Shown one piece after another: positions 33,091 through 55,706 of a stretch of DNA of 57,897 nucleotides. Position numbers and translations under genes: made by a program. This DNA comes from Promethearchaeia archaeon. Its GTDB lineage: Archaea; Asgardarchaeota; Lokiarchaeia; Sigyniarchaeales; SOKP01. The DNA lies in NCBI GenBank assembly GCA_029856085.1, contig JAHQWI010000034.1, positions 1 to 57,897 of the forward strand, read 5' to 3'. The notes beneath the pieces were generated by a model, which was not told where the DNA came from, did not search any database, and saw only the letters and a list, made by a program, of their open reading frames with translations. Position 1 is the stretch's first letter. The number at the start of each line of letters is the position of its first letter.

Positions 33091-33654
33091 TCAATCTTGT
33101 AACTCTACAGATAATGTTTTAAACTTGTTATATAACTCATCAATTATCATATTAAATGCTGTAATTACACCCTTCCCTGTTTTTGCTGATGTTATATAAT
33201 ACCCAAGAAAATTATTTTCTTTAACTATTTCTTTAATATCTGAATCGTCTAAGTTATCCTCGTCTACTAGATCAACCTTATTTGCAAATACAACTATCGG
33301 AATATCTCCACAATGTTTTATAATGTCTTCGTGCCAATCTAATAAATGCTTAAAACTCTCTTCACCAAGTTTATTATCCTCAAGACTATATACAATAATA
33401 GCAGCTTTGCTGTTCTTAAAGAAAGAAGGACGTAAAAAGTGGAAGGTATCCTGCCCAGCAATATCCCAAAATAATAATCTGATTTTATCTCCTTCTAATT
33501 CTTTATTGTACACCGAGAATTGTGCACCTATTGTCTTAACATAATCCCGCTTAAATGATCCTTGAGTGAACTTCTTAATAAGCGAAGTTTTTCCCACTCT
33601 CCCGTCACCGATCAGCGTAACCTTAAAACGGAACCTACGCCCTTCATCACTCAT
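33091..33654 (-). CDS. Ras/Rab-like small GTPase (cassette copy A)
   Basis: G1 GDGRVGKTS, switch-I TIGAQF, G3 WDIAGQD, G4 ANKVD, G5 TSAK. Clearly paralogous to 38515..39054. Confidence 0.9.
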   Translation of the reverse strand: MSDEGRRFRFKVTLIGDGRVGKTSLIKKFTQGSFKRDYVKTIGAQFSVYNKELEGDKIRLLFWDIAGQDTFHFLRPSFFKNSKAAIIVYSLEDNKLGEESFKHLLDWHEDIIKHCGDIPIVVFANKVDLVDEDNLDDSDIKEIVKENNFLGYYITSAKTGKGVITAFNMIIDELYNKFKTLSVELQD

Positions 33655-33825
33655 AGAATTTTTAGAAGAAATAAAATAAGTATATATTCTTTTTAAAAAA
33701 TGTAATTAAACTAAGATCAGTTATTTTTTAATATAAAATTTTTGTTTCTGCTTAAAAGTAATCGAAAAATGTACGAAATTGAAAAAATGTATGAATAATT
33801 TGAAATTAAAAAAAAAGTTTGAATT

Positions 33826-33921
33826 TTATTTAAGATCTTTTAATCCAAATTTATATTTTTCTGGATTTAAAAGAAAATTTCCCATCGAATATTTCCACTT
33901 ATCCTTTTTTTGTTCTTTCAT
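33826..33921 (-). CDS. Conserved micropeptide sA (31 aa: MKEQKKDKWKYSMGNFLLNPEKYKFGLKDLK)
   Basis: Not in the track because it is too short. GAGGT lies about 10 nt upstream of the ATG. A paralogue sits at 39283..39375 in the same position relative to GTPase B. Differences between the two are mostly conservative (S/T, M/I, N/D, E/K, Y/F) plus one synonymous change (TTA/TTG). Confidence 0.55.
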   Translation of the reverse strand: MKEQKKDKWKYSMGNFLLNPEKYKFGLKDLK

Positions 33922-33976
33922 TTTTTGACAACCTCTATTAAATTTTTTTTTATTTTGAGAAATTTGAAAAAATTAA

Positions 33977-34069
33977 TCATTTTATTATACGATTAGTGAG
34001 CTCCCTATGCTCTTCCAAATCGTTCTTTATCTTAAACCTTTCAAATCTCTCCAATTTTTTGTTTTTCAT
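33977..34069 (-). CDS. Possible small ORF (30 aa: MKNKKLERFERFKIKNDLEEHRELTNRIIK)
   Basis: ATG preceded by GGGAGGGCG and an AT-rich TATA-like stretch plus a CTCCATTT element. No paralogue in the second cassette. Confidence 0.3.
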   Translation of the reverse strand: MKNKKLERFERFKIKNDLEEHRELTNRIIK

Positions 34070-34107
34070 TCTTTTTCGCCCTCCCTTTATTTAAATATAT
34101 ATCAAAT

Positions 34108-34134
34108 GGAGGGGGATAATAAAGGTCCCCCTCC
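34108..34134. other. GC-rich hairpin: 9-bp perfect stem GGAGGGGGA / TCCCCCTCC with a 9-nt loop
   Basis: Read directly at 34108-34116 and 34126-34134. It is flanked by the direct repeat CCCTGATTTTA x2 (about 34135-34161). It lies between the 84-aa gene stop and the sORF promoter region and is very atypical for this AT-rich sequence. Confidence 0.5.
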
Positions 34135-34214
34135 CCCTGATTTTATTTCTCCCTGATTTTACTACTTCGGCTTGTCGGATGAATTAAATCAGCGTTATGA
34201 TGATAGAATGTTTT

Positions 34215-34469
34215 TTAGAAATTTCCATAGTTCCTGTAGTGAATATTTCTTCTGATCTTATCCACAGGAATTTTCTCTTCTAAATACTTAGCATTATATT
34301 TAGCTTTCTTCAATAATTTTAATAAAGCATTTTTAACTGGTTTCTCCTCTGCTTTTACTCTCACTATCGTATAATCTTCCTCAATAGCAGGGAGCTCTTC
34401 TAAAATAATTACATGTTCTATTTCAAAAGGTTCCTCAAATTCCTTTCTCTTAACTAATACTTGAACCAT
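34215..34469 (-). CDS. Hypothetical small protein (84 aa)
   Basis: ORF preceded by GAGGTGGTGG a few nt upstream of the ATG. No motif recognised. Confidence 0.55.
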   Translation of the reverse strand: MVQVLVKRKEFEEPFEIEHVIILEELPAIEEDYTIVRVKAEEKPVKNALLKLLKKAKYNAKYLEEKIPVDKIRRNIHYRNYGNF

Positions 34470-34504
34470 TTATTCCACCACCTCTCAATTCTTATTTTTG
34501 TAAA

Positions 34505-34762
34505 TTAATAAACCCTAAAAATATCGAATTTGGAACTAAAAATAATATCTGACGTATATGGCTTTTGTAATGCTTCTTTTAAGGGAATTCCTTCTTCAAA
34601 GTATCTAGGATTTAAGTTCTTATATAGATCATTTTGTTTTTTAGCTTCATCAATATCTTTTTGCTCTGATTTTGAAGTTTCTTTCAACAGAATTATATAT
34701 AGATCTTCAAGTTCGAAAAGGGAATCTTCCTTTACTGTGACTTGTTTCATTTTATTTTTCAC
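34505..34762 (-). CDS. Small protein (85 aa), paralogue of 35485..35712
   Basis: The C-terminal half NLNPRYFEEGIPLKEALQKPYTSDIIFSSKFDIFRVY aligns with DLNPRYFEETTHFKEAIERVYTSDINVGSKFNFFSVF in the 75-aa ORF. GTG at 34762 or ATG at 34750 could be the start. Confidence 0.65.
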   Translation of the reverse strand: MKNKMKQVTVKEDSLFELEDLYIILLKETSKSEQKDIDEAKKQNDLYKNLNPRYFEEGIPLKEALQKPYTSDIIFSSKFDIFRVY

Positions 34763-34799
34763 ACTCTCATATTTTTTCTCATAAGTTTAGTTAGAGCAA

Positions 34800-34857
34800 G
34801 GTTTAATTTATAGTTTAACGTTGCGAAGTTTAAATGGAGTTTAAGACTTGTTTTAGA
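34800..34857 (-). promoter_or_regulatory. Conserved upstream block U1 (TATA-like element plus ACTCCATT motif) for the 85-aa gene
   Basis: 44/58 identical, ungapped, to U2 (35747..35804). On the coding strand it reads ACTCCATTTAAAC...AAACTATAAATTAAACC, ending about 38 nt before the start codon. Confidence 0.5.
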
Positions 34858-34981
34858 CTCTCCTCATCTCTTCTTAAAATGTGTCTCTGTTTAATATAAG
34901 TTCATTCCTAAGAAGAAGTTATAGAGTTTATCACATTACTAGAATAGTTAAAAAAATCGTAAAGACTCAGCTCATCAGGTA

Positions 34982-35344
34982 TTAAAAATTTCTTGACCAA
35001 TATTCTTCGTAAGTTAAATTGTTCGGGATATCTCTGTTCCCCTTATAAATTCGAGGAACTGCTCTAGAATCTATTAAGATCCTGATGAATTTATAATTGG
35101 TTAAATGATCGAGAGCATCCTTAAATTGATAATAAGTCTTAAAATCTTGGATTTTTCCAGTGATATCTATTAAATCGTAATCATATAGAAATTGATCAAT
35201 ATTCGGAAATTGATCTTGAAGCCAATAGTCCTTACAATCTTCAATAATTTTTATAGCATATTGATAGTTACTAAAATGAGTTTTTGAGGAGAAATTTTTC
35301 ATAGTCGCATAAATGATAAAATAATTTGCTTTTAAGGATTTCAA
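34982..35344 (-). CDS. Hypothetical protein (120 aa; alternative start at 35302)
   Basis: ORF rich in Y, F and D. No motif recognised and no paralogue in the window. Confidence 0.5.
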   Translation of the reverse strand: MKSLKANYFIIYATMKNFSSKTHFSNYQYAIKIIEDCKDYWLQDQFPNIDQFLYDYDLIDITGKIQDFKTYYQFKDALDHLTNYKFIRILIDSRAVPRIYKGNRDIPNNLTYEEYWSRNF

Positions 35345-35484
35345 AAACAGAAAATTTTTATATGAAAATTAGTGAAACTGCGAAAATAAGATTAAAACTG
35401 AAAAAAAAAGCATAAATGAATCATTTAAAGTTGTAATAACAGATGAAACAGATAAAATAAGAATAAAAAAATTATTAAATAATT

Positions 35485-35712
35485 CTAAAAAACACTAAAG
35501 AAATTGAATTTAGAACCGACATTAATATCTGAGGTATAAACTCTTTCAATCGCCTCTTTAAAATGAGTAGTTTCCTCAAAATATCTTGGATTTAAATCTC
35601 CAAGTAATTCATCCATTTCACTTTCTATTGGTGTTTGAATTTCAGGTTCTTCAACTTCATGACTTTTCAATATTATTATTTTTTGATAAGTTTGGGTCAT
35701 CTTTTTTACCAC
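35485..35712 (-). CDS. Small protein (75 aa), paralogue of 34505..34762
   Basis: Shares the LNPRYFEE...KEA...YTSDI...SKF.F..V[FY] C-terminal module. GTG at 35712 or ATG at 35700 could be the start. Confidence 0.65.
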   Translation of the reverse strand: MVKKMTQTYQKIIILKSHEVEEPEIQTPIESEMDELLGDLNPRYFEETTHFKEAIERVYTSDINVGSKFNFFSVF

Positions 35713-35746
35713 TTTTTTATTTTATTATTAAGAATAATTAGAATAT

Positions 35747-35804
35747 GGTTTAATATATAGTTTAATCTCGTAAACTCTGAATGGAGTCTTAGATCTTTTT
35801 TAGA
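35747..35804 (-). promoter_or_regulatory. Conserved upstream block U2, in the divergent region between the 75-aa gene and the 840-aa wHTH-TPR gene
   Basis: The coding strand reads ACTCCATTCAGAG...AAACTATATATTAAACC. Same spacing to its gene as U1. Confidence 0.5.
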
Positions 35805-35955
35805 TAATATTTTTTTCTTCACACAATTACATTCATTTTCATCCATAAATAGTATTAATTTTAGAACTCTAATTAGAGTTTGAATCAAAAAGTATAAATA
35901 AACCCCTTCTATATATTAATTATAAGTATATTATCTATTGGTAAATGAATGAATT

Positions 35956-38478
35956 TTGGATACGCCTTGTAATTATCCCCCTGACGAGATTCTAAATCCT
36001 ATAATTGGTAAACCCAATTATGAGTATATTATTCTTTGGATATTGAGTAATAATGAAGTATGCTCTTGGTCAGATTTAAAAGAAAAAGTGAATCGATCAA
36101 CACTATCTATTTATTTGAATAGACTTAAGAGCAATGGGCATATTTTGAAAAGTGAGTTCAATCAGTATCGTATTACATCTAAAGGAAGAGAAAGATACTA
36201 CGAATTAGGTCAATCCAAGAAGGGTAGAAGGAAATTAAGTTATCCTCCAAAGGTAATTCTTGAAAAAAGGAATTATGATCACACTATCCTATGGATGGTC
36301 TATAATAATAATTATTGCAAATGGGGAAATTTCCTTGAAGAACCACTCTCTATTAATCAATCCTCCTTATCAAAGAATATGAATAAATTAATGGAAAAAA
36401 CATTTGTAATAAAGGAAGATAAAGAATATAGAATTACTCGATTGGGTAAATCAGAGTATTCTAAAATGTTAACTTATTATGATTTAGATAGACAGTCGAT
36501 ATTAGAAGAAGAGAGTAAACGAATAACAGAACTAACACAAAAAACACTGAATTTTTTTGAAAGTTTTGAAATCAGTGAGAGGGATATTCAATTTCGATTC
36601 CTTAATAGTGTTTTGAGGTTAGACTATGAAAAAATTAAACCGGTATTAAGGGATGAGGAAGATTTTCATAAAATATTACTTCTTCTTTCGATTAACCATC
36701 CAAATGATTATCCCAAGTACATGTTTCCTGAAGAATTCTCTGAAAAATATGGAATTAAAAAAACTACTCTTGATTATTATATTGATGAAATAGTTGAAAA
36801 CCAAATTTTTCCAATAAGATTTTTTAAATTAGAGGTGCTCCCAGATAAATTTTATTATTTTCAATCAGATGAAAAAGTAGAGATGATGCTTAGGATTATT
36901 ACAGAGGAACATATTACAAAGTTTACCTACTTGAATAAGCTTTTTGAGGGCTCCTCAGATTTAATTCTCCCTCTGAATATGAGTTCTACTGTAAATGCTA
37001 TTTTGGACGAAGCTTGCCAAAATATATTCGATGAAGGATTAAAAAAATCATTAAGAAAATTTTTACCTGGATATATCAATTATTTAGCATATAAAATTGA
37101 GAAAGAAAAGAAGTTAGTTGGTGTTTCTGATAAATTAGAAGGAATTATTTGGCAAAACATTCCTGAAATATTGCAATCAGACATTTATAAAACTTCTCAA
37201 TATCAATTTATCGGTGAAAGCGACATGAATTATTATTTAGATACCTCAATATTAGAAGTACTACAACCATACTTAGCTTTCTGGTTTAAACCAGAAGAAT
37301 TAAATTTAAAGATCCAAGATTATTTAAAATCGAAAGAATATGATAAAGCTTTAAGATTGGAAGAATTGGGCAAAGCTTTTGCTAATTCTAAATCGAAGAT
37401 AAAGAATTTAGATCTCATTATTGTTAAAGGAATTATTCTTAGTCATTTAAATCGGAATAAAGAATCAATAGAATTCTTAAGGAGTAACGTAGATTTATCT
37501 CTTATTAATAAAGAAGATGAAATATATGCTCCTTATCTTTTTGTGTTAGCTTTTTCATATATGACTCTTGGAGATATTGAAAATGCTCTAAATATGACAA
37601 ATAAAGCAATAGAAATATATCCTAAACTACCTCTTTCTCTTGTTTTAAAGGGACTAGTGCTTGGTTATAATAGTATTTATACATTCGATGCAGAAAAAGC
37701 CGATAAAGAAAATGGAATAAGTTATATCGAGAAAGCTATTAATTTAGAATCAAATAAAACCAATAAAGCAAGATATTATCAGTTAAAAAGCCAAATCTTA
37801 CTAGATTTGAATAATTATGAAGATGCTCTAGAATCGATTGATAATGCTATTAAATTAAATTCTAAAACACTAGATTTGTACAATTCTAAAATTAGGATTT
37901 TAGTTTATTTTGACCAGTTCAACGAAATAATAGCCATATTGGACAAATTACTAGTTGATTTTCCTGAAGCGGAAAAGAATCTTAAGATTAAAAAAGCGTA
38001 TATTCTTAAAGAAATGAAAAATATTGAAGCAGGTTTAGAGATAATTAATGAATTAATCGAAAAATATCCCGAAGATAATAGTCTCATACTTAATAAAATT
38101 TATTGGTTACAATATTTAGATGAAAAAGAAAAGGTATTAACAACTATCGAGAAAGTTATAGAAAAAAATCCCGAGTTGGGAATATACCATGACACATATG
38201 GAGAAATTTTAATGAACTTCGAGGAGTATGAAAAAGCTATAAAAGAATTCCTAAAAACAATAGAATTAGCTAGTCATGAGTGGTATATCAACCAGACTTT
38301 TATAAAGTTAGCTATATGTTATAAGGAGGAGGAAAATTATGATTTAGCAATTGATTATCTTAAGAAAGGTCAAGAATTTACAAACAAATGTTTTTGTGAT
38401 CTTGATACAAAAAGAAAATGGCTAGCAATAGTAAATCTTTATCTAGCAGAGATTGAGCAACTAGAAGAGGAATTTTAA
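35956..38478 (+). CDS. Double winged-helix plus TPR-repeat protein (840 aa), putative regulator/receptor
   Basis: TTG start, with an in-frame TGA 6 nt upstream. Two tandem wHTH-like units (NYEYIILWILSNNEVCSWSDL...YRITSKGRERY and NYDHTILWMVYNNNYCKWGNF...YRITRLGKSEY), a conserved middle domain, and a long C-terminal TPR-like array (...YHDTYGEILMNFEEYEKAIKEFLKTIELAS...). Confidence 0.8.
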   Translation: MDTPCNYPPDEILNPIIGKPNYEYIILWILSNNEVCSWSDLKEKVNRSTLSIYLNRLKSNGHILKSEFNQYRITSKGRERYYELGQSKKGRRKLSYPPKVILEKRNYDHTILWMVYNNNYCKWGNFLEEPLSINQSSLSKNMNKLMEKTFVIKEDKEYRITRLGKSEYSKMLTYYDLDRQSILEEESKRITELTQKTLNFFESFEISERDIQFRFLNSVLRLDYEKIKPVLRDEEDFHKILLLLSINHPNDYPKYMFPEEFSEKYGIKKTTLDYYIDEIVENQIFPIRFFKLEVLPDKFYYFQSDEKVEMMLRIITEEHITKFTYLNKLFEGSSDLILPLNMSSTVNAILDEACQNIFDEGLKKSLRKFLPGYINYLAYKIEKEKKLVGVSDKLEGIIWQNIPEILQSDIYKTSQYQFIGESDMNYYLDTSILEVLQPYLAFWFKPEELNLKIQDYLKSKEYDKALRLEELGKAFANSKSKIKNLDLIIVKGIILSHLNRNKESIEFLRSNVDLSLINKEDEIYAPYLFVLAFSYMTLGDIENALNMTNKAIEIYPKLPLSLVLKGLVLGYNSIYTFDAEKADKENGISYIEKAINLESNKTNKARYYQLKSQILLDLNNYEDALESIDNAIKLNSKTLDLYNSKIRILVYFDQFNEIIAILDKLLVDFPEAEKNLKIKKAYILKEMKNIEAGLEIINELIEKYPEDNSLILNKIYWLQYLDEKEKVLTTIEKVIEKNPELGIYHDTYGEILMNFEEYEKAIKEFLKTIELASHEWYINQTFIKLAICYKEEENYDLAIDYLKKGQEFTNKCFCDLDTKRKWLAIVNLYLAEIEQLEEEF

Positions 38479-38514
38479 AGATAGTACTATATTATGATCC
38501 TATAATACTCATGG

Positions 38515-39054
38515 CTAAGTCTTGGATTTATAGTACAATTCGTTAATAAGAGTATTAAAAGCATCATGAACACCATGCCCTGTTTTTGCTGAGGTCAAGT
38601 AATATCCCAGAAAACCTTGTTTTTCTACCATTTTTTGAATTTTAGAATTATCTAGATTATCTTCCTCAACTAGGTCTATTTTATTAGCAAATAGAATTAT
38701 TGGTATTTCACCACAGAATTTTTTAATATTCTCATACCAATTATCTATATGCTCAAAACTCCGTTTACCTAACTCATTTTCTTCAAGGCTAAAGACAATA
38801 ATTGCTGCTCCACTTTCTTTATAAAATGAAGGTCGTAGAAAAAGAAAATCATCCTGACCGGCTATATCCCAGAATATCAATCTAATCTCATCTCCTTCTA
38901 TTTCTCTTTCAAACTTAGAGAATTGGGCACCTATAGTCTTAACATAATCTGTCTCAAAACCACCCTTTGTGTAATTCTTAATCAATGATGTTTTACCCAC
39001 TTGCCCGTCTCCTATCACTGATATTTTAAATCTGAATTTTTGAGCAGCGGTCAT
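38515..39054 (-). CDS. Ras/Rab-like small GTPase (cassette copy B)
   Basis: GDGQVGKTS, TIGAQF, WDIAGQD, ANKID, TSAK. Well over half of positions look identical to GTPase A by eye. Confidence 0.9.
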   Translation of the reverse strand: MTAAQKFRFKISVIGDGQVGKTSLIKNYTKGGFETDYVKTIGAQFSKFEREIEGDEIRLIFWDIAGQDDFLFLRPSFYKESGAAIIVFSLEENELGKRSFEHIDNWYENIKKFCGEIPIILFANKIDLVEEDNLDNSKIQKMVEKQGFLGYYLTSAKTGHGVHDAFNTLINELYYKSKT

Positions 39055-39282
39055 TAATTAATTATAGAAAACAAATTTTCATAATTTATTTAATAGTAGA
39101 TTAGATGTTTTGTAATTTAAAATTTTAGTTATTAATGAAATCTAGTTAATACAAATTTCTATTGTTAAAGACTATAAGATTTGAAATAAGGTAAATATCG
39201 AATATAACTCTAATTAAAATAGAATTTTAAATAAAATTTAAGAATTAAAAAAGAAAAATTTAAAAAAAAATTTTGAATATTA

Positions 39283-39375
39283 TTAAAGATCTTTCAATCC
39301 AAATTTGAATTTCTTTGGATTTAAAAGAAAATCTTCTATCGTATATTTCCACTTATCGTCTTTACTTTTTTTCAT
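39283..39375 (-). CDS. Conserved micropeptide sB (30 aa: MKKSKDDKWKYTIEDFLLNPKKFKFGLKDL)
   Basis: Paralogue of sA. AAGGT lies about 9 nt upstream of the ATG. It has the same position and orientation relative to its GTPase and directly faces the 633-aa wHTH-TPR gene. Confidence 0.55.
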   Translation of the reverse strand: MKKSKDDKWKYTIEDFLLNPKKFKFGLKDL

Positions 39376-39427
39376 TTTTTTTTACCTTCTAATAAGTTTT
39401 TTCTTAATTTTAATTTAGTTTGTATCC

Positions 39428-39477
39428 TATATTTAGTTTTATTACATGAACTTCAAATGAAGTTCGAATTTTAAAGG
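39428..39477 (-). promoter_or_regulatory. Upstream block U3 (diverged copy of U1/U2) between sB and the 633-aa gene
   Basis: TATATTTAGTTTTATTACATGAACTTCAAATGAAGTTCGAATTTTAAAGGA shares the TAGTTT..AACT..AATGnAGT core with U1 and U2. About 60% identical by eye. Confidence 0.35.
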
Positions 39478-39547
39478 AAGCTCGCGAAATTTATATAGTA
39501 TTAAAAACTATATATAACTAAAGATAAAGACTTTTAGAGAAAATATC

Positions 39548-41449
39548 ATGAGTCAAATAAATTTACCTCCTAAAGAGATTTATAATCCTCCAGCCCTGGA
39601 GAAAAAAAATTTTGAACATATCATTCTTTGGATGTTATATAATAATGAAGAATGTGAGTGGTCAAATTTTACTCAAAAACCGCTTGAACTTCGGTTATCT
39701 ACTCTCTCAAAATATCTATCATTATTAAAGGGGAAAGGATACGCTGAGAATATTTCAAGAGGGCACTATAAAATTACTTCAGAAGGCAGAAAGAGATATC
39801 TTGAATTATCACAAGCTAAAGAAAAAAAAAGAACTCTAAGTTATCCCCCTACTATAATTAAAAGAAGGAGAAATTACGATCATTGGATTCTTTGGATGGT
39901 TTATAACAATAATTATTGCAAATGGGCTAATTTCCTAGCAGAACCTCTTTCTATCAATCAATCTTCCTTGTCTAAGAATATAAACTTATTACTCGATAAA
40001 GGATTTATAGAAAAAGAAGAAAAGAAATATAGGATTACCCGCTCAGGTAAAATAGAGTATTCTAGAATATTACAAGAATATGATTTAGATAAACAATCAA
40101 TTTTGGAGGAAGAAAGTAAGAGAATTGAAGAGATTACAATAAAAACTATCAAATTTTTTAATAAATATAACATTGAAAATAAAGACATACAATTTAGGTT
40201 ACTCAACAATATGCTGAAATTGGATTATACCAGAGTTGAAGCAATGCTAACAAATGAGGAAGATTTTGACAAAATCCTACTCTTTATCTCAATTAATCAC
40301 CCAAGTCAATATCCTAATTATCTTTCCGTAGAGGAGTTCTCGAATACTTATGGAATTAAAGAATCTAAAGTGGATTATTATATTGATGAAATTATTGAAA
40401 ATCAAATTTTCCCTATTAAATTTTTTAAAATTATCGTTCAACCAGATATGTGTTATTACTTTCAGGAGGAAGAAAGATTAGAAATAATGCTTCGAGCTAT
40501 CACAGAAGATCATATCACCAAATTTACCTATCTAAATAAGTTGTTTTCAAGATCATTAGACATAAGTAGCACCATAAATGATATATTAGAAGATATTTGT
40601 CAAATATTATTTCCTATTGGTTTAAAAGAATCCTTACATATTTTTTTACCAGAATATATTAACTATTTAGCTTACAAAATTGAAGCAAAAGTTGAATTTA
40701 AAGAGACGTATGATAAATTAGAGGGCATTATTTGGCAAGATATGATAGATATATTTCAATCAAGAAGTATCGAAGAGTTACAAGATGATTATAAAGAAGA
40801 AATTAAAAAACTTGATATAAAAATTGAATCAAATCCAGAGAATCTTGATTTATACTATTCAAAGATAAGAATTTTAATTTATTATAATCAATTCGATGAT
40901 GTATTGAATTTATTAGACGAGATGCTGGTAATATTTCCTGAGAGTGAACTTGATATTAAAATGAAAAAGGCGTCTGTTCTTAGAAGGATGCAAGAAGTAA
41001 AAGCCGGTTTAGACATAATTAATGAATTGATTGAAAAATATCCTCAAAACAATGATCTTATTAATTACAAAGCTTATTGGCTTCAATATTTAGATAAAAA
41101 AGAAGAATCTCTGAAAATAATCCAGGATCTTGTAGAGAAAATTCCTGATAATGCAATGTATCATGATACATATGGAGAAATTCTAATGTATTTTGAACAG
41201 TATGAAGAAGGGATACAAAAATTCTTAAAAGCTATAGAATTAGCTAGCGATGAGTGGTACATCAACCAGACCTATATAAAGCTCGGTATATGTTATAAGG
41301 AGGAGGAAAATTTCGACTTAGCTCTCGAAAATCTTAAAAAAGGGAAAGAATTAACCGAGAACAGCTCTATAGACGAAGAAACAAAACAAAAATGGCTTAT
41401 AATCACAGATCTTTTTCTTGCAGAGATTACGCAGATTGACGAAGAATAA
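39548..41449 (+). CDS. Double winged-helix plus TPR-repeat protein (633 aa), paralogue of 35956..38478
   Basis: Collinear with the 840-aa protein (for example NYDHWILWMVYNNNYCKWANFLAEPLSINQSSLSKN, ENQIFPIKFFK, HITKFTYLNKLF, YHDTYGEILMYFEQYEEGIQKFLKAIELAS). It lacks roughly 200 aa of the TPR region present in the longer copy. Confidence 0.85.
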   Translation: MSQINLPPKEIYNPPALEKKNFEHIILWMLYNNEECEWSNFTQKPLELRLSTLSKYLSLLKGKGYAENISRGHYKITSEGRKRYLELSQAKEKKRTLSYPPTIIKRRRNYDHWILWMVYNNNYCKWANFLAEPLSINQSSLSKNINLLLDKGFIEKEEKKYRITRSGKIEYSRILQEYDLDKQSILEEESKRIEEITIKTIKFFNKYNIENKDIQFRLLNNMLKLDYTRVEAMLTNEEDFDKILLFISINHPSQYPNYLSVEEFSNTYGIKESKVDYYIDEIIENQIFPIKFFKIIVQPDMCYYFQEEERLEIMLRAITEDHITKFTYLNKLFSRSLDISSTINDILEDICQILFPIGLKESLHIFLPEYINYLAYKIEAKVEFKETYDKLEGIIWQDMIDIFQSRSIEELQDDYKEEIKKLDIKIESNPENLDLYYSKIRILIYYNQFDDVLNLLDEMLVIFPESELDIKMKKASVLRRMQEVKAGLDIINELIEKYPQNNDLINYKAYWLQYLDKKEESLKIIQDLVEKIPDNAMYHDTYGEILMYFEQYEEGIQKFLKAIELASDEWYINQTYIKLGICYKEEENFDLALENLKKGKELTENSSIDEETKQKWLIITDLFLAEITQIDEE

Positions 41450-41554: not shown

Positions 41555-41971
41555 ATGTTTTCGCATTATTATATTACGAAAAAAGAATATTTTAGAAGCA
41601 TGAGTAAATTTGAAAATCATAAAAAATTGTATCTGAATTTTAAAAAAGATGCTGAAAATGAAGAAAATTCAAAACCATCTAGAGCAGAATTATACTTTCT
41701 TTCGATATTTCATTTAATTGAAGGTTGTGCTGCAAAATATCGGATACATATTAATAAACATCAAAAAGTAAGAATATTTTTGGAAAATAATCCCAATATC
41801 TTTGATATAAAAACGGAAAATGTATGGCGATTATTTCAAGATATTGAAAATAAAATTCGCCCAAAATTTACTTATGGGTTTAGTTGGACGGATGAAGATT
41901 TTAATGAATTAAAGGAAAAATATTATAGATTAGAAGAAATATGTATTAAAGTGTTAACAGATGAGCCTTAA
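41555..41971 (+). CDS. HEPN-like protein (putative partner of the adjacent nucleotidyltransferase)
   Basis: A small helical protein overlapping the MNT gene by 11 nt. AAKYRIHINKHQKVRIFL resembles the HEPN (PF05168-type) helix-H segment. This is a weak call based on motif and context. Confidence 0.45.
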   Translation: MFSHYYITKKEYFRSMSKFENHKKLYLNFKKDAENEENSKPSRAELYFLSIFHLIEGCAAKYRIHINKHQKVRIFLENNPNIFDIKTENVWRLFQDIENKIRPKFTYGFSWTDEDFNELKEKYYRLEEICIKVLTDEP

Positions 41972-42653
41972 TATAAAATTAGAAAAAAGTCAAATGAAAA
42001 ATTCAAGAAAAGAGGTAAAATTGCAAAAGATAATAAATAAAATTAGGATTTATATAGACACTAATCTCTCAAAATATGAAGATATTGAAAATATTATATT
42101 ATTTGGCTCTTTAGCTTCTGGAAAATTTCATGAAAATAGTGATATTGACATCTGTATTTTATTTAAGCCTAATACTCCTAAAAATATGGAAACAACTATT
42201 TTTAATAATTTCTTAAGCCTAGGGAAGGAATTAGATCGCTCCATTCAATGTATTTTCTTTTTTCCAGAGGATATAAATAACTGGGATACTATTTTTGTTG
42301 AAAATATTCTAGCTGAAGGACATTTATTATCTGGAAATTCTAATTTCTTCGAAACTCTAATAAAAGCTTTAGAATTTAAACCATATCAAATAATAACTTT
42401 AAATCTAAGAGCATTAAATAGTTCTGCTAAAATGAAATTAAAAAGGATATTATATGGATATAGAACTAGCAAGAAATATTCTGAAAAAATATATAGATAT
42501 CAAAAAAAAGGATTAGTGAAAGAATTACAGGGTATAAAATTAGGACGGGGATCATTTGTTATACCTGAAAAATTCTTATTACTTGTCGAAACTAAGTTAA
42601 AAGAATTTGATGTTAAATTTTCTAACTTTAGAGTATGGATGCAAGAAATATAG
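41961..42653 (+). CDS. Minimal nucleotidyltransferase (MNT) domain protein with a C-terminal extension of about 110 aa
   Basis: ILFGSLASGKFHENSDIDICILF is the GS-x(n)-D-x-D Pol-beta-type NTase signature. I do not recognise the C-terminal half (YQIITLNLRALNSSAKMKLKRILYGYR...GRGSFVIP...). Confidence 0.75.
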   Translation: MSLNIKLEKSQMKNSRKEVKLQKIINKIRIYIDTNLSKYEDIENIILFGSLASGKFHENSDIDICILFKPNTPKNMETTIFNNFLSLGKELDRSIQCIFFFPEDINNWDTIFVENILAEGHLLSGNSNFFETLIKALEFKPYQIITLNLRALNSSAKMKLKRILYGYRTSKKYSEKIYRYQKKGLVKELQGIKLGRGSFVIPEKFLLLVETKLKEFDVKFSNFRVWMQEI

Positions 42654-42765: not shown

Positions 42766-43428
42766 ATGATTAAAGAAATTGAGATACAATATCAAAATAT
42801 TATAGAACATTTTCCTAACGCTGAAACTATTGAAAATAAAATTTCACATATTAAAATTGGATTAATAAAGGGGATTATGTTAGAAATTAACTATTCTAAA
42901 TATCCTAAAAAACCAAAAGTTAAGCTTATTAGATCTGGGACAGTTTATAAAAAATTAAATAATGATATCACTTCTTTAAAAAATTGGAAAATAATTAAGA
43001 TTAAGTCTATATTAAATGTTATTAATGAAATTATTTTTATTTTAGAGGATCTACAATCAAATACGGTCAAAATAAAAAGGGATTTATTAGAGGGGTTTTT
43101 AGCGTTATGTCGGGCGCATCATCCAAAAGAATTTTTAGGAATCCTTGAAATGGATAAAAATGTATTTACAGAATTTATATTACCTCCAGGCGCAATTACT
43201 TCAAGAAATTCAGGAGTATTTTTTCCGAGTAGAATTCCAATAAATCGATATTATCAAGGAACTATTCATTCACATCCATCTGGAAATGTGTTCCCTTCTT
43301 TACAAGATTTAAATAGTGTATTTAAAGGAAACAGATTTCATTTTATTGTAGGTTTTCCATATAGTATAAACCATATTAAATGTTTTGATAAAAATGGCAC
43401 AGAACTTCGATTTAAAGTGATTAACTAA
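42766..43428 (+). CDS. JAB/MPN (JAMM) metalloprotease with an N-terminal RWD/E2-variant-like domain (candidate)
   Basis: Intact JAMM motif: E in PKEFLGIL, then HSHPSGNVFPSLQD (H-x-H-x7-S-x2-D). The N-terminal ~100 aa contain LEINYSKYPKKPKVKLI, which resembles the YP..PPKV flap of UBC/RWD folds. No HPN-Cys is present. Confidence 0.7.
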   Translation: MIKEIEIQYQNIIEHFPNAETIENKISHIKIGLIKGIMLEINYSKYPKKPKVKLIRSGTVYKKLNNDITSLKNWKIIKIKSILNVINEIIFILEDLQSNTVKIKRDLLEGFLALCRAHHPKEFLGILEMDKNVFTEFILPPGAITSRNSGVFFPSRIPINRYYQGTIHSHPSGNVFPSLQDLNSVFKGNRFHFIVGFPYSINHIKCFDKNGTELRFKVIN

Positions 43429-44836: not shown

Positions 44837-46549
44837 TTGAGATTAAAGTATATTTATCCATTATTTGCATTTTTAATTTTTATGGTTTTAACTACGATTT
44901 TTTTAATACAAGAATATATCTGGATAATAATCCCTTCTTTCATAATATTTTACCCTATGCCATATCTTTCTGGGCTTAAAGAGACAGCACAGAACAAAAG
45001 TGTGGTTGTTAAAATAAAAAATAAATCACCATTCATGATCCCGATTTTGTTCTTCTCATTACCTACAATTATAATCAATAGCATTTTTCTTTTTGCAAAT
45101 GTAATTGCCTTATTACTATTCTTTATGATTTATTTCATTAGTTTGTTGTTTTACTTCTCAGGAATTTACATTTTAATTCGAGATCTAAAAAAACAATTTG
45201 AAATTACGATAGGCCCTATTGAAATTGATGAAAAACGAGACAAAAAGAAACTCTTATTAATAAATCCTGTAAATAAAGATGTAGCAGGATTAACAATAAA
45301 TCCATCCTCAACATTTCCACCTTTAGGTTTAGGAATAATAGCCGCCTTAACTCCCAACATCTTTAAAATTAAATTAATTGATGAAAATTTTGAAAATTTT
45401 GAGTATGAAGAAGCCGATCTTGTTGGGATAACAGCATTTACTTCAGTGGCGAACCGTGCCTATGAAATTGCTGCTCTTTATAAAAATATACCTGTTATTA
45501 TGGGGGGAATACATGCTTCAATGGTTCCCGAAGAAGCTTTGGAGTACGTTGACTCTGTTGTGATAGGTGAAGCAGAGAGTATTTGGCCTACAGTTATAAA
45601 TGATTTTCTTAATAATAAATTAAAAAAGAAATATGAAGGTGTTCACTTAGACTTAGAGAATACTGTTATCCCTAATAGAAAGATATATAGTAATAAATAT
45701 TTATTTGGGACTTTACAAACTTCAAGAGGTTGTCCTATGGATTGTTACTTCTGTTCGGTAAGTGTATTTAATGGAAGAAAATACAGGCAACGTCCCTACG
45801 AAGAAGTATTAGATGAATTGGAACAAATACCTCAAAGAATGATTTTCTTTGTGGATGATAATATTCTTGGATATGGTAAAGGCGCTGAAGAGAGAGCAAT
45901 TAACCTTTTTAAAGGAATGGTGGAGAGAAAATTGAATAAAACATGGTTCTGCCAAGCTTCATTAAATTTTGGAAGCAATGAAGAAGTCATAAAATGGGCA
46001 GCGAAAGCAGGATGTAAAATGGTATTCTTAGGATTAGAATCCGCTGATCCCGAAGAACTTAAAGTAATGGATAAAAAATTGAACCTCCAACTTGATTATG
46101 AAAGAGCTTTCAACAAAATTAATAAATACAAAATCGCAGTTTTAGGAGCATTCATTTTTGGTTCTGATTCGGAAACAAAAGAAAGTATGTATAGGAAAGT
46201 CAAATACATATTAAAAAATCGTATTGATGTTATCCAAACTACTACTTTAACCCCTTTACCTGGAACAAGATTGTTTAAGGAATTACAGCAAAATGAAAGA
46301 CTCATTTATACTAATTTTCCTCAAGATTGGAATCTCTATGATATGGGACATTTAACTTATAAGGTTAATAATATGGAAAATGAAGAATTTCTGAGAAGAA
46401 ATAGAAAATGTTCAAGAAAACTTTATTCTAAATTTTCATTGTATAAAAAATTCTTTAAGACGTGGATTCATTGTAAAAGTTTACAGACCGCAATGTGGGC
46501 TTATAGTTCTAATAAAAATTATAGGAATGTTTCTTTATCAAGTCCCTAA
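44837..46549 (+). CDS. B12-binding-domain radical SAM protein with an N-terminal membrane domain of about 4 TM helices
   Basis: The first ~120 aa are hydrophobic helices. They are followed by a B12-binding-like Rossmann segment (PPLGLGIIAALTP...ADLVGITAFTS...VIMGGIHAS) and the radical SAM cluster motif CPMDCYFC. Confidence 0.8.
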   Translation: MRLKYIYPLFAFLIFMVLTTIFLIQEYIWIIIPSFIIFYPMPYLSGLKETAQNKSVVVKIKNKSPFMIPILFFSLPTIIINSIFLFANVIALLLFFMIYFISLLFYFSGIYILIRDLKKQFEITIGPIEIDEKRDKKKLLLINPVNKDVAGLTINPSSTFPPLGLGIIAALTPNIFKIKLIDENFENFEYEEADLVGITAFTSVANRAYEIAALYKNIPVIMGGIHASMVPEEALEYVDSVVIGEAESIWPTVINDFLNNKLKKKYEGVHLDLENTVIPNRKIYSNKYLFGTLQTSRGCPMDCYFCSVSVFNGRKYRQRPYEEVLDELEQIPQRMIFFVDDNILGYGKGAEERAINLFKGMVERKLNKTWFCQASLNFGSNEEVIKWAAKAGCKMVFLGLESADPEELKVMDKKLNLQLDYERAFNKINKYKIAVLGAFIFGSDSETKESMYRKVKYILKNRIDVIQTTTLTPLPGTRLFKELQQNERLIYTNFPQDWNLYDMGHLTYKVNNMENEEFLRRNRKCSRKLYSKFSLYKKFFKTWIHCKSLQTAMWAYSSNKNYRNVSLSSP

Positions 46550-52268: not shown

Positions 52269-55200
52269 ATGATTGAATCAAAAGAAAGATCTAAAATTTT
52301 TCAAGAAAATTGTGAATTAATTACAGAAAACATAAATGAATTAATTATAATTATAAATCAAGTAGGTGAAATTGAATCCATTAACAATTTACCCTTGATA
52401 AAGTCTTTAGGGTATGAAAGTGATGATATAATAGGAAAATCTTGGTTAAATTATGTACATAGTGAAGACCTCGAAACTGCAATTAATGTATTAGAGAATT
52501 GTACTGAAGGTAAGCCAGTTGTTCAAGAGTTAAGATTAAAACATGCGAATGGGAGCTATAAAAATTTTAAATTTTTCTGTAAATTAACAAAAAATTTTAA
52601 TGAATCGAATGGTTTTTTAATTTTTTTAAGACCTGAACAACGATTAAAAGAATCAAATGAGTTTTATAAAACCATATTGGATTGTGTCATTAATGGTGTC
52701 TGGGTAACTAATAAGGATGACATAATTTTTTTTACCAATAAAGGCATGGAAACAATTGCGGGAATAGCAGCAGCTCAAATTGTTGATGTCAGAGTTTTGA
52801 AAGATTTTCCTGAGAGTACATTGAAATATTTTAGATCTTACTATCTAAAAGCTAAAGAAGCATTAGAACCAGTTTATTATAATGCAGTACCTGTTAAAAC
52901 ACCTGGGGGTAGACAAAGCTATCAATCTGGATGGTTAATTCCAAGGACTCAAGATGGTAAATATGATGGGATGATATGTACGGTTGAAGATGTTACTGAA
53001 CGCATAGAATATGAACAAGAATTAAAGGAATCAAAAGTACAATTAGGGAAATTTAATAAAGAGTTAGAACAAAAAGTTGAAGAAAGAACTAGTGCATTAA
53101 AAGAATCTGAAGAAAAATATCGCATGTTGATTGATAGTATTTCAGATGTTATTTTTGAAATTGATTTAGATGGGAAGATTATCTATTTAAGCCCTCAGAC
53201 AACTTATATGTTAGGTTATCGACCAGAACATTTAATTAATAAAAATTCATTTACATTCATCCATCCTGATGATCAAGAAAAAGTGTTAGAACACCATAAT
53301 TATATTATAAATTCTGGAGGAATTGGCTCTGTAGAATTCCGAATTCGTCATAAAAAAGGTTATTTTATTTCAGTTTCTTCAAGAGGTCAATTAACTAAAA
53401 AGGATAATGAAAAGAGAATTGTAGGTTCATTTAGAGATATAACAGAGTGTAATAAAATTAAGGAAAAGGTACAACTAGAACGAGAGAAAGCTGAATTGTA
53501 TTTAAATCTTGTAAATGTACTCATCGTTGCGCTAGATAGAGATGGACATATTTCAATGATAAACCAAAAAGGAAGAGAGATTTTAGGATGGAATGAAGGA
53601 GAATTAATTGGTAAGAATTGGTTTGAAAACTGTCTTCCTTTAGTTGATCGCGATAAAGTATATAGTTATTATAATCAACTCATGAAAGGAACAATTGGGG
53701 TAAAACCGTTCTATGAAAATTCAGTAATTACTAAAAATGGAGAGGAAAGGTTAATTGCATGGTCTACCATATTGGTCAGAGATTCAAATGGTAATATAAC
53801 AGGAGCTTTAAGTTCGGGAGAAGATATCACAGAACGCGAAAAGGCTGAACAAGAATTGAGAAAGTCTGAAGAACGACTAAAATATCTCGCATCCTCAGGA
53901 CCTACAGTTATTTACACAGCCAAAGCCTCAGGAGATTATGGAAGAACTTTTTTTAGTGAAAATGTAAAAGATTTAACTGGTTGCGACCCTGATGACTTCA
54001 TTAATAATTCTGAATTATGGATTAACAATATCCATCCAGAGGATAAGGATTTAGTATTGTCAAGACTTTCAAAAATATCAAAAAAGAAAAGTATAGGGTA
54101 TGAATATCGATTTAAATTTAAAAACGAGACATATCATTGGATACGTGATGAATCTAAATTAATTACTGATGATAAAGGAAATCCAGTTGAATTAATTGGT
54201 TTTTGGTCAGATATAACATGGAGTAAAAAATCAGAAGAAAAAATACAATATCAAGCTAAACTAGTTGAAAATGTGTCCGATGCGATTATTTCTACAGATC
54301 TAGACTTTAAAATAATTACGTGGAATAAAGCTGCTGAATCTATATATGGTTGGAAAGCAGATGAAACAATAGGAAAGTACATCATTGATATAATTCCAAC
54401 TGAATACTCCAATGGTGACACAAGAACTGTAACAAAACAATTACTTGAAGAAGGTTTTTGGAATGGTGAAGTTATTCAACCACATAAAGACGGCACTCAA
54501 ATTAATATTTTGGAATCAGTTTCTATTCTTAAAGATCTTACCGGAAACCCAATAGGAGTTATAGCAATCAATCATAATATTACAGAGCGTAAAAAAGCAG
54601 AACAAAAATTAAAAGAATCAGAAGAGAAATTTAGAACAATTGCAGAACAATCTTCATTAGGGATGATTATTCAACAAGATGGATTAATTAAATTTGCGAA
54701 TTCAGCTGTTTCAGATATCATTGAGTATCAATTGGAAGATATTCACAAATGGACTGCAGAAGATACTCTTAAATTCATATATAAAGAAGATTTGCAGTTA
54801 ATAATTGAAAAATTAAAACAAAGACAGGATGGTGATTTTGAGTCTATAAATCAATATGAATGTAGAGCAATTACAAAATCAGAGAAAATCAAATGGATAG
54901 ATGTCTACACAAAACCTATTATTTATCAAGGGAAGAATGCAGTTTTATCAACATTTATAGATATCACAGAGAAAAAGAAAGTAGAAGAAGAACTAAAAGA
55001 AATAAGTAGATTAAAATCCGAACTTTTAAGCAGAACTTCTCATGAATTAAAAACACCTTTAGTTTCAATAAAAGGTTATGCAGATTTATTATTAAGTCAA
55101 CACTATGAAGAACTTGATTTTTATACTATCTCTGTTTTACATGAAATCAAGCAAGGTTGTTCTCGGCTTGAATCTTTGATAAAAGATCTATTAGAAACTT

Positions 55201-55706
55201 CGAAACTTGAATCTGGTGAAATTGAATTAAATAAGGCTGAAGATGATTTAGCGTTTTTAATTAGATTTTGTGTTAGAGATTTAAAGGGGCTAGTAGAAAC
55301 TCGAAATCATGAATTAATCTTAGATATAAAAAATAAAATGATAACATATTTTGAAAAAGAAAAAATTTACGAAGTACTTATGAATTTAATAAGTAATGCA
55401 ATTAAATATACTCCTACAAATGGCAAGATTATACTTAGTTCGAAAGTTCAGAATGGGAATTATGTTATATCTGTTCAAGATACTGGTATCGGTTTAACAG
55501 ATGAAGAAAAAGCGAAGATTTTCAAAAAGTTTGGAAAAATAGAGCGTTATGGAAAAGGATTGGATGTTGTTTCTGAAGGTTCTGGTCTAGGTCTTTATAT
55601 TTCAAAAAAAATTATTGAACTTCATAAAGGTAATATATGGGTAGAATCTGAAGGGAGAAAAAAAGGCTCGATATTCTATTTCTCTTTACCAATAATAAAT
55701 AATTAA
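52269..55706 (+). CDS. Multi-PAS sensor histidine kinase (1145 aa)
   Basis: Repeated PAS/PAC units separated by coiled E/K-rich linkers. H-box SHELKTPL, N-box NLISNAIKYT, G1 DTGIGL and G2 GSGLGL. Confidence 0.95.
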   Translation: MIESKERSKIFQENCELITENINELIIIINQVGEIESINNLPLIKSLGYESDDIIGKSWLNYVHSEDLETAINVLENCTEGKPVVQELRLKHANGSYKNFKFFCKLTKNFNESNGFLIFLRPEQRLKESNEFYKTILDCVINGVWVTNKDDIIFFTNKGMETIAGIAAAQIVDVRVLKDFPESTLKYFRSYYLKAKEALEPVYYNAVPVKTPGGRQSYQSGWLIPRTQDGKYDGMICTVEDVTERIEYEQELKESKVQLGKFNKELEQKVEERTSALKESEEKYRMLIDSISDVIFEIDLDGKIIYLSPQTTYMLGYRPEHLINKNSFTFIHPDDQEKVLEHHNYIINSGGIGSVEFRIRHKKGYFISVSSRGQLTKKDNEKRIVGSFRDITECNKIKEKVQLEREKAELYLNLVNVLIVALDRDGHISMINQKGREILGWNEGELIGKNWFENCLPLVDRDKVYSYYNQLMKGTIGVKPFYENSVITKNGEERLIAWSTILVRDSNGNITGALSSGEDITEREKAEQELRKSEERLKYLASSGPTVIYTAKASGDYGRTFFSENVKDLTGCDPDDFINNSELWINNIHPEDKDLVLSRLSKISKKKSIGYEYRFKFKNETYHWIRDESKLITDDKGNPVELIGFWSDITWSKKSEEKIQYQAKLVENVSDAIISTDLDFKIITWNKAAESIYGWKADETIGKYIIDIIPTEYSNGDTRTVTKQLLEEGFWNGEVIQPHKDGTQINILESVSILKDLTGNPIGVIAINHNITERKKAEQKLKESEEKFRTIAEQSSLGMIIQQDGLIKFANSAVSDIIEYQLEDIHKWTAEDTLKFIYKEDLQLIIEKLKQRQDGDFESINQYECRAITKSEKIKWIDVYTKPIIYQGKNAVLSTFIDITEKKKVEEELKEISRLKSELLSRTSHELKTPLVSIKGYADLLLSQHYEELDFYTISVLHEIKQGCSRLESLIKDLLETSKLESGEIELNKAEDDLAFLIRFCVRDLKGLVETRNHELILDIKNKMITYFEKEKIYEVLMNLISNAIKYTPTNGKIILSSKVQNGNYVISVQDTGIGLTDEEKAKIFKKFGKIERYGKGLDVVSEGSGLGLYISKKIIELHKGNIWVESEGRKKGSIFYFSLPIINN

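Follow-up and report, generated by a model that had tools for sequence, protein, structure and literature searches.

Stand-alone Ras-like GTPases encoded beside a helix-turn-helix (HTH) protein and dedicated regulators are known from the conservons (CvnA-D, or MfpB-E), which have a regulatory role and occur in multiple paralogous copies per genome. The RRNPP(A) regulators of Firmicutes and phages (Rap, Rgg, NprR, PlcR, PrgX and AimR) fuse an HTH to tetratricopeptide repeats (TPR), lie next to a peptide gene and have also multiplied as paralogues, and in the STAND proteins (MalT, AfsR/SARP-TPR and Apaf-1-like proteins) an NTPase serves as the switch. Asgard archaea encode dozens of eukaryote-like small GTPases, the partners and functions of which are largely unknown. 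Rag-like and Rab-like members with roadblock or longin partners (MglA/MglB type) have been described among them. In MK-D1, GTPase genes generally lie outside operons with RB, longin or TRAPPC3 genes, and predicting partners from the layout of a genome is difficult (Tran et al. 2024, PMC10933270). Here we describe a locus on contig JAHQWI010000034.1 (assembly GCA_029856085.1) that has features in common with each of these systems; the whole stretch analysed, 57,897 nucleotides, is referred to as the window. The host is an Asgard archaeon of the Lokiarchaeia type, and the locus consists of two tandem copies, units A and B, of a gene module, probably regulatory, that is specific to this type of lineage and has been expanded through duplication. 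Each unit combines a Rab-like GTPase, one or more micro-proteins and a divergently encoded large protein with winged helices (wH) and a TPR array, which is most likely an autoregulated transcription factor functionally coupled to its own GTPase.

The open reading frames (ORFs) named in a first-pass annotation of the window were all recovered and, as it had proposed, the three types of component are paralogous between the units. GTPase A (positions 33091-33654, minus strand) and GTPase B (38515-39054, minus strand) share 65% identity (E=1e-89). Large protein A (840 aa; 35956-38478, plus strand) and large protein B (633 aa; 39548-41449, plus strand) are about 60% identical, with 60% over the first 410 aa (E=2e-165) and 57% over the last 221 aa, and the former has about 210 extra TPR residues. 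The micro-proteins sA (33826-33921, minus strand) and sB (39283-39375, minus strand) are identical at 70% of their residues (E=3e-15), and their DNA at 82% over 154 nt (direct repeat D3). The reported spacer of 172 bp between sB and large gene B was found at 39376-39547. GTPase B is divergent from large gene B and convergent with large gene A, from which it is separated by 37 bp. The window is AT-rich (about 27-29% GC in this part). The closest public contig is JAUVXW010000003.1, which encodes proteins 95-97% identical to those of the window; an exact-sequence look-up with a window protein returned no record, and Rfam and tRNA scans over the window gave no matches.

The first-pass annotation had named a lack of linkage between GTPase, short ORF (sORF) and wHTH-TPR genes in other genomes as the main ground for giving up the module. 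A survey found the linkage to be conserved in both directions, which decides this point in favour of the module. The locus sample comprised 69 loci from species-representative Asgard genomes, in which the parts were mapped by tblastn and the neighbouring ORFs were all clustered with no prior selection of families. The commonest neighbour family was the Ras-like GTPase (62 ORFs in 41 loci). The large proteins fell into five main orthogroups, A, B, C1, C2 and D, and a divergent GTPase was present at 420-833 bp in 11 of the 15 orthogroup B loci with flank (18 loci overall), at 254-740 bp in all nine orthogroup D loci with flank (10 overall) and, beyond a set of small genes, at 1.5-2.3 kb in 6/7 orthogroup A loci with flank (13 overall). 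A convergent GTPase at a distance of 9-45 bp follows the large gene in 12/13 orthogroup A loci as well. The GTPase is thus a conserved part of the module beside A-, B- and D-type genes, as had been claimed, but it is not universal: in orthogroups C1 (14 loci) and C2 (6 loci), no Ras-like GTPase lies next to the large gene, and one sister GTPase clade accompanies a different protein. For the reciprocal test, metagenome contigs were anchored on the GTPase, which gave 34 loci extending 2.5 kb or more upstream. A divergent large gene was found in 19 of these, a TPR-longin gene directly upstream in seven, a convergent large gene only in three and none of these in five; 29/34 (about 85%) therefore lie near a large wH-TPR or TPR-longin gene. 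The module was seen only in Asgard (Loki-type) archaea, across many genomes.

In a distance tree, the GTPase partners of D-, A- and B-type large proteins form separate clades, and GTPase A of the window falls within the clade of GTPases divergent to A-type large genes. Since these clades are congruent with the partner paralogue, the module has been duplicated as a whole, in agreement with the first-pass annotation. A further clade always adjoins a second TPR family, TPR2. Its members are encoded directly downstream of a TPR-longin protein of about 650 aa (L009, L010, L028, L031-L033, L038, L046-L048, L053, L056, L059, L069 and seven metagenome loci), the last ~135 residues of which are weakly but consistently longin-like (VAMP7 longin, E of about 0.01; Pfam Fuz/MON1 longin). 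The TPR-longin protein and the sister-clade GTPase form a candidate pair of guanine nucleotide exchange factor (GEF) and GTPase. Another family, c14 (about 290 aa), is encoded co-directionally downstream of C2-type large genes, which it follows in 6/6 loci (family members in L014, L015, L018, L019, L021, L027 and L035). The N-terminus of c14 is longin-like and homologous to the longin-like domain of TPR2, and its C-terminus is a divergent P-loop GTPase (GEAGVGKT) related to the Ras-like family (hhalign 82%, E=1e-5).

Both GTPases of the window are Rab-like. GTPase A is a stand-alone protein with canonical G1-G5 motifs (Pfam Ras, E=3.6e-39), and GTPase B gave a similar match (E=6.7e-40). The two are recognized as Ras/Roc in Pfam and carry the motifs GDGxVGKT, DIAGQD, NKxD and SAK. 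Among solved structures, the best relatives of GTPase B are Rab23 (E=5.8e-31), Rab21 and a Thorarchaeota Rab, and database relatives carry the NCBI name 'Rab family GTPase'. Neither GTPase ends in a C-terminal Cys prenylation motif (the two ends read LYYKSKT and KTLSVELQD). The clade is large, with at least 1,799 protein clusters at 90% identity (E<=1e-40), and the top 120 relatives are all stand-alone proteins of 166-193 aa. Each GTPase gene has its own conserved promoter/leader block, devoid of a palindrome, at 33692-33746 (minus strand) for GTPase A and 39076-39130 (minus strand) for GTPase B. These are paralogous (direct repeat D8, 73% identity), and the latter is near-invariant in L001-L005 (alignment A1). 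The leader of unit B contains AAAATTTTATATTACA and, further on, CTAATCTACTATTAAATA. Its conservation is far above that of the surrounding spacer, and it may therefore be a regulatory leader or binding site.

The large proteins were examined by profile and structure searches. Pfam recognizes two winged HTH domains (HTH_45 and HTH_34) and TPR; in large protein B the two domains score 39.0 bits (cut-off 25.5) and 27.6 bits (cut-off 27), respectively. An AlphaFold2 model of this protein (mean predicted local distance difference test, pLDDT, 82.9) consists of wH1 (residues 22-76), wH2 (110-163), a long helix (182-224), a wH3-like domain (237-306), a helical linker (310-406) and a TPR array (409-632). 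Large protein A has the same order with a longer array, and its TTG start is kept in orthologs. The proposal that the large proteins have no NTPase domain of their own was borne out by Pfam, and in the model of large protein B, which has wH, helical and TPR elements only. A match to a characterised family, which the first-pass annotation had named as a ground for refutation, was not found in PDB profile, Foldseek, NCBIfam and PADLOC searches. The full-length model and profile retrieved only generic TPR proteins from PDB and Foldseek, and a model of the N-terminal part (pLDDT 69, moderate) gave no significant Foldseek match (best E=0.02, generic wH and RPC3). The nearest folds among these non-significant matches were wH of the MarR, PadR, PhiH1-repressor and Sso10a types and the multi-wH subunit RPC3. 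Sub-threshold wH matches in NCBIfam, PADLOC and PHROG were to Sso10a, Sta1, ArsR, Csa3 and transcriptional regulators. No system-level match was found in PADLOC, PHROGs or NCBIfam; the PADLOC defence models gave weak generic wH/TPR matches to the large proteins only and none for the GTPases or small proteins.

When defined by its N-terminal 410 residues, the family of the large proteins comprises 190 cluster representatives (E<=0.001) among 1.84 billion proteins. Variation in the TPR array accounts for lengths between 630 and 1340 aa. In a sister architecture, leucine-rich repeats (LRR) precede the same wH module (P0188, P0214, P0228, P0234, P0254, P0261 and P0269), and this swap of LRR and TPR suggests a modular 'repeat sensor plus wH' design. 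The recognition helix of wH1 reads LSTLSKYL in orthogroup B, [RH]STLSIYL in A and D, and TGTLSRHL in C, and the wH2 helix INQSSLSKN is invariant across orthogroups. A typical large wH-TPR protein, 60% identical, is also encoded by L065 (DATKTW010000095.1), a contig labelled 'Candidatus Nanopelagicaceae bacterium' that probably comes from an Asgard archaeon and was wrongly binned with an actinobacterial metagenome-assembled genome.

The intergenic regions between the large genes and the small genes contain divergent archaeal-type promoters on either side of a palindrome. When slot B (the micro-ORF position of unit B) was aligned among relatives, conservation peaked in the ~100 nt upstream of the sORF and not in the sORF itself. 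An nhmmer search over the window and the 69 loci located 35 copies of this block, and behind every copy lies a micro-ORF or small ORF; its most conserved parts are TTCGAACTT followed by AAGTT, AAACTAtATA and ATTAAAATTAA. In unit B, the bidirectional promoter block (39401-39498, minus strand) comprises the TATA-like element of sB (AAACTAAATATAG; 39427-39439, minus strand), a perfect B-type palindrome (AACTTCAAATGAAGTT; 39449-39464) and a TFB-recognition element (BRE) and TATA box of the textbook archaeal type (CGAAATTTATATAG; 39485-39498, plus strand) about 50 nt before the start of large gene B. In unit A, the TATA-like element of the first small gene, p75 (35748-35767), is followed by an imperfect palindrome, O2 (AACTCTGAATGGAGTC; 35773-35788), by a perfect A-type palindrome (AACTCTAATTAGAGTT; 35865-35880), a candidate operator about 90 nt before large gene A, and by a TATA-like element for the latter (approximately 35888-35904). 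A degenerate operator-like site is also present upstream of p85 (34826-34841). Both perfect palindromes are single-copy sequences in the window, located at the promoter of the respective large gene.

The A-type palindrome keeps a conserved position and shows no variation at any of its 16 columns in seven orthologous loci, where the mean identity of the spacer is 74%, and is among the longest invariant runs of the intergenic alignment. Palindromes of four types follow the orthogroups: AACTCTA-AT-TAGAGTT in A, GAACTTC-N4-GAAGTTC in B, ATCATC-N5-GATGAT in both C1 and C2, and TACTTTC-N6-GAAAGTA in some D loci. The wH1 recognition helix varies in step with them and wH2 is constant. The palindrome between the divergent promoters is likely an operator, and the presence of paralogue-specific palindromes in this position gives indirect support to the large protein being a transcription factor. 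The Pfam matches to HTH_45 and HTH_34, the sub-threshold wH matches and the nearest folds also speak for this role.

The analysis shows the composition of the units and their paralogy, a linkage conserved in both directions, the co-diversification of GTPase and regulator, the coding signatures of the sORFs and the arrangement of promoters and palindromes. We propose a scheme for how the parts work together, in which DNA binding, the identity of the TPR ligand and the sign of regulation are what we infer. The core of each copy would be a one-component regulator, with two wH of DNA-binding type, a third wH-like domain and helical linker, and a C-terminal TPR array, encoded divergently from the genes for the micro-proteins (families T1 and T2/3, below), the p75/p84 family and a dedicated Rab-like GTPase. 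The regulator would bind the paralogue-specific palindrome, which separates its BRE/TATA from the one serving the first small gene, with wH1 setting operator specificity and the invariant wH2 adding affinity, and this binding would control both its own promoter and the small-protein promoter. The TPR array would act as the input domain and sense which nucleotide its cognate GTPase has bound, the conserved tails at the C-termini of the micro-proteins, or both. As an explanation of the whole, such a GTPase-gated transcriptional switch with small-protein feedback is put forward tentatively, at somewhat short of an even chance. The narrower version, in which the Rab-like GTPase gates the transcription factor directly and, in its GTP-bound form and together with micro-proteins of 22-31 aa that insert their C-terminal tails into the TPR array, switches the tandem-wH regulator on its palindromic operator, seems to us rather doubtful.

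Several observations weigh against the proposed switch. Orthogroups C1 and C2, which together account for 20/69 loci, have no adjacent Ras-like GTPase, and the GTPase is therefore dispensable to the family as such. Fusions of GTPase and regulator were found neither in the scanned outliers of the 190 family representatives nor in the top 120 GTPase relatives. The conservation of perfect palindromes is limited to subclades, and finding one perfect 7+7 palindrome in a spacer rich in AT is, taken alone, not improbable. Matches to the palindromes with up to three mismatches were not enriched in the window, so that a wider regulon could not be called. The differences in slot-B micro-ORFs among close relatives argue against a strict pairing of one peptide with one receptor. 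In addition, the DUF742 HTH protein MfpC is a GEF for the Ras-like MfpB in actinobacterial conservons, and HTH content alone is therefore no proof of DNA binding.

Two alternatives keep the large protein at the centre of the module and differ in what it does. It could be an ordinary local transcription factor, the outputs of which are the neighbouring small genes and the GTPase, with a TPR array that senses an unrelated ligand and no feedback. We hold this to be rather unlikely, even though all of the promoter and palindrome evidence applies to it, the C-type paralogues work although no Ras-like GTPase adjoins them, the sister LRR and wH proteins suggest a generic sensor-plus-wH design, and micro-ORF content turns over between relatives. 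What such a regulator leaves poorly accounted for is the GTPase: it has its own conserved promoter/leader without a palindrome, and it has co-diversified with the regulator over long times and through rearrangements of gene order, which exceeds what is expected of a mere target. The sister GTPase clade with its TPR-longin partner also hints at a direct relationship between TPR and GTPase. That same clade, longin being a GEF platform, is one of the arguments for the other alternative, namely that the large protein is a GEF, GTPase-activating protein or effector scaffold of the GTPase and does not bind DNA, with the wH making protein contacts, the small proteins serving as adaptors or co-regulators and another factor binding the palindromes. 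The precedent of MfpC, the tight reciprocal linkage and co-diversification with the GTPase, and the invariance of the wH2 recognition helix in spite of palindromes that differ between paralogues all fit this view, and TPR arrays are common as effector or scaffold domains of GTPases (e.g., Rac-p67phox). However, wH1 and wH2 match DNA-binding wHTH families above the Pfam thresholds and DUF742 is unmatched, the wH1 recognition helix and the type of palindrome vary together, autoregulated repressors and activators typically show such a layout of divergent promoters, and the C-type paralogues are again without an adjacent Ras-like GTPase. We consider a scaffold without DNA binding to be unlikely.

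The remaining alternatives concern the micro-proteins. Quorum sensing of the RRNPP type, with micro-proteins that are exported, processed and re-imported before binding the TPR receptor, is suggested by an HTH-TPR protein beside a small peptide gene and by a gene for the M3 oligoendopeptidase F (PepF), which in relatives recurs as a neighbour of the large gene (17 loci) and is convergent with it wherever the orientation is resolved; peptidases of the PepF type degrade signalling peptides in Firmicutes. It is nevertheless highly improbable here, as the hydrophilic, Lys-rich peptides contain neither a hydrophobic segment nor a signal sequence, the HTH is of the winged and not of the XRE type, the T1 motif also forms the tail of cytoplasmic-looking proteins of 45-94 aa, no transporter recurs in the neighbourhoods and PepF is absent from the window. 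We give equally little credence to the view that the sORFs are not genes, in which sA and sB would owe their conservation to a role as regulatory DNA or as an untranslated leader, and GTPase and large protein alone would make up the module. The nucleotide identity of sA and sB is indeed above that of the flanking genes, and a dN/dS of 0.2-0.44 is moderate and comes from very short sequences. On the other side, ORF, ATG and stop are preserved at 40-97% amino acid identity with a Shine-Dalgarno (SD) motif at a fixed distance, third-position changes are in excess, longer called proteins end in the motif in the same reading frame, and the upstream promoter block stays constant while the ORF family behind it varies.

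Two families of micro-proteins were distinguished, and both are Lys-rich and without a hydrophobic segment, which confirms the earlier description of the micropeptides as hydrophilic and lacking a signal sequence. The T1 family, to which the 31-aa sA (ending in FLLNPEKYKFGLKDLK) and the 30-aa sB belong, has the motif [DN][FY]LL[NH]P.K[FY]KFGLKDL, is preserved as an ORF in many loci and shows a third-position excess of substitutions (median dN/dS 0.40). Micro-ORFs are preceded by a GAGGT-like SD motif about 7-9 nt upstream, in the case of sB GAAGGT 8 nt before the ATG, and an oligo-T run follows the stop of both sA and sB. In other loci, the ~25-residue T1 motif forms the C-terminal tail of longer proteins, the c9 family (45-94 aa). 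In a c9-anchored test, a GTPase was immediately upstream in 4/4 places, and the sole long contig had a divergent large gene. The second family, T2/3 (M[KR]K...KG[LI]IK[IV][NR]N...), comprises two sub-types that cross-match and has a dN/dS of 0.22-0.44. Conservation of the micro-ORFs with coding signatures, as the first-pass annotation had expected, was thus recovered from the SD motif, from dN/dS values of 0.22-0.44 and from the reading of the motif in longer proteins, and on these grounds sA and sB look translated.

Slot B is not uniform among relatives. As a part of unit B, sB is present in the window but not fixed in this slot, and L001, the closest relative (95-97% identical), carries a different micro-ORF. 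Slots of L003-L006 contain T1 and T2, those of L001 and L002 only T2 and that of the window only T1; the loci checked nevertheless each keep at least one ORF of the T1 type and at least one of the T2/3 type. Gene conversion from sA into slot B was considered for the 82% nucleotide identity and dropped, as L006 holds an ortholog of sB (83% identical) beside T2. For the same reason, we prefer a history of differential loss from an ancestral slot with both T1 and T2. An origin of c9 by fusion of a T3-like protein with T1 was also rejected, as the T2 and T3 profiles miss c9.

Unit A carries additional small genes between sA and the large gene, all on the minus strand. The four that had been reported are present, but a conserved fifth ORF was overlooked, a micro-ORF of 30 aa (MKNKKLERFERFKIKNDLEEHRELTNRIIK; 33977-34069) that lies between p84 and sA, is kept in L001, L002, L003 and L040 (phmmer E=7e-11 to 5e-7) and is a possible T2/3 member (the T3 profile weakly matches its L003 ortholog, E=0.03). 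Between this ORF and p84, in surroundings of about 27% GC, lies a GC-rich hairpin (34108-34134, minus strand; -23.1 kcal/mol, z=-2.2), which has a G/C stem of 9 bp and is probably a transcript boundary. The small genes p84 (34215-34469), p85 (34505-34762; likely ATG at 34750, TATA-like AAACTATAAAT upstream) and p75 (35485-35712; likely ATG at 35700) are members of a single family (hhalign 95%, E=2e-8), with p75 heading the genes divergent from large gene A. Their alignment shows an invariant N..Y inside LNP.YFEE/YNAKYLEE and an aromatic C-terminus; in p84, found in 14 loci, the central motif is YN[AP]KYLEE. The fourth gene, p120 (34982-35344; 120 aa), is a narrowly distributed accessory gene, present in few close relatives only (about 5 loci). 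No known relative of p75, p84, p85 or p120 was found in Pfam, NCBIfam, PADLOC or PHROG, the profile of the p75/p84 family had no relative in PDB, and profile comparison of c9 with p75 or p84 revealed no relationship. In L047, L048, L050, L054, L063 and L071 (D-type, some A-type), a co-directional array was observed in which the GTPase is followed by c9 with its T1 tail, p84, c15 (a Cys-rich protein of about 84 aa ending in GHWVTAG) and a 745-aa B12-binding radical SAM enzyme. This array, which the window does not contain, resembles in flavour a maturation cluster of the kind that serves ribosomally synthesized and post-translationally modified peptides, attached to the module.

Downstream of large gene B, the segment 41555-43428 (plus strand) encodes a 138-aa ORF without a Pfam match, a nucleotidyltransferase (Polbeta/NTP_transf_2; 41961-42653) and a Prok-JAB protein (42766-43428). 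At the corresponding position beside the large gene, L002, L004, L006-L008 and L011 encode PepF. The segment looks like an insertion or replacement and is possibly a toxin-antitoxin-like pair. A B12-binding radical SAM protein of 570 aa (44837-46549, plus strand) follows after a thiolase, 3.4 kb past large gene B. The order of large gene, PepF where present, thiolase and radical SAM gene is syntenic in L001, L004 and L006, and may reflect inherited synteny rather than function. About 11 kb downstream lies the gene for a histidine kinase of 1145 aa (52269-55706, plus strand) that combines numerous PAS domains with HisKA and HATPase_c; no link between it and the module was seen.

With its specific neighbours, this Rab-like clade offers directly testable pairs of GTPase and partner, and the locus supplies candidate operator sequences and two conserved micro-protein families. 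If the GTPase does gate the regulator, some Asgard GTPases would act in gene regulation, and readings of the Asgard GTPase expansion in terms of membrane trafficking would be tempered, as part of the repertoire would serve transcriptional signalling rather than membrane traffic.

How far the units depart from described systems is best seen part by part. The RRNPP and STAND precedents invoked in the first-pass annotation turned out to be analogies only, since their defining features (an XRE HTH and an export signal, and a NACHT/NB-ARC domain, respectively) are lacking here. The RRNPP regulators share with the units the fusion of HTH and TPR, the adjacent peptide gene and the paralogous multiplication. 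However, their HTH (in some, a phosphatase domain instead) is of the XRE type and directly precedes the TPR, whereas here there are two wH (with no XRE/HTH_3 match) and about 230 residues of wH3-like domain and helical linker before the TPR, and their propeptides carry a signal sequence or have an export route and are processed to a short mature peptide, which binds in the TPR groove and thereby switches DNA binding, whereas the present peptides are hydrophilic, unprocessed-looking and without export signals. The GTPase as a conserved member, the archaeal lineage and the interchange of peptide types between close relatives are further departures from RRNPP. The wH-helical-TPR order of residues 237-632 of large protein B recalls the WHD-HD2-sensor portion of STAND proteins, and in both cases an NTPase would be the switch in the pathway. 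Yet the NACHT/NB-ARC P-loop of STAND proteins lies in the same polypeptide, N-terminal to wH and sensor repeats, where Pfam and the AlphaFold2 model show none in the large protein, and it is an AAA+-like ATPase and not a separate TRAFAC-class Rab-like GTPase; Foldseek searches with the large protein models gave no STAND match.

As regards GTPase systems, the G domain is closest to those of eukaryote-type Rabs, which carry a C-terminal Cys on a hypervariable tail that is absent here. Asgard GTPases with roadblock or longin partners are likewise Rab-like in part, and the sister clade with TPR-longin and the longin-GTPase fusion beside C2 recall them, but the window units have no roadblock or longin protein and their conserved partner is the wH-TPR protein. 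Archaeal and bacterial wH regulators (ArsR/PadR/MarR/Sso10a-like) provide the family profiles by which the wHTH domains were recognized. The conservons come close in having a stand-alone Ras-like GTPase beside an HTH protein with dedicated regulators, in multiple paralogous copies, and the GTPase feature of CvnD/MfpB is found here as well (Pfam Ras, E of about 1e-39; canonical G1-G5). On the other hand, conservons include a histidine-kinase-like CvnA, a roadblock CvnB/MfpD and a DUF742 CvnC/MfpC, none of which is present in the two units or the recurrent neighbours (Pfam: DUF742, Robl_LC7 and HATPase), and they form one operon, whereas the units consist of divergent genes with separate promoters. 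Unlike conservons, the units have as partner a tandem-wH and TPR protein of 630-1340 aa, micro-protein genes, an Asgard host and a GTPase of the Rab-like type. Literature searches found no description of a module of GTPase, regulator and micro-protein, and its composition is new; if the proposed gating is true, the module would represent a new design of prokaryotic G-protein signalling, of a composition undescribed in any domain.

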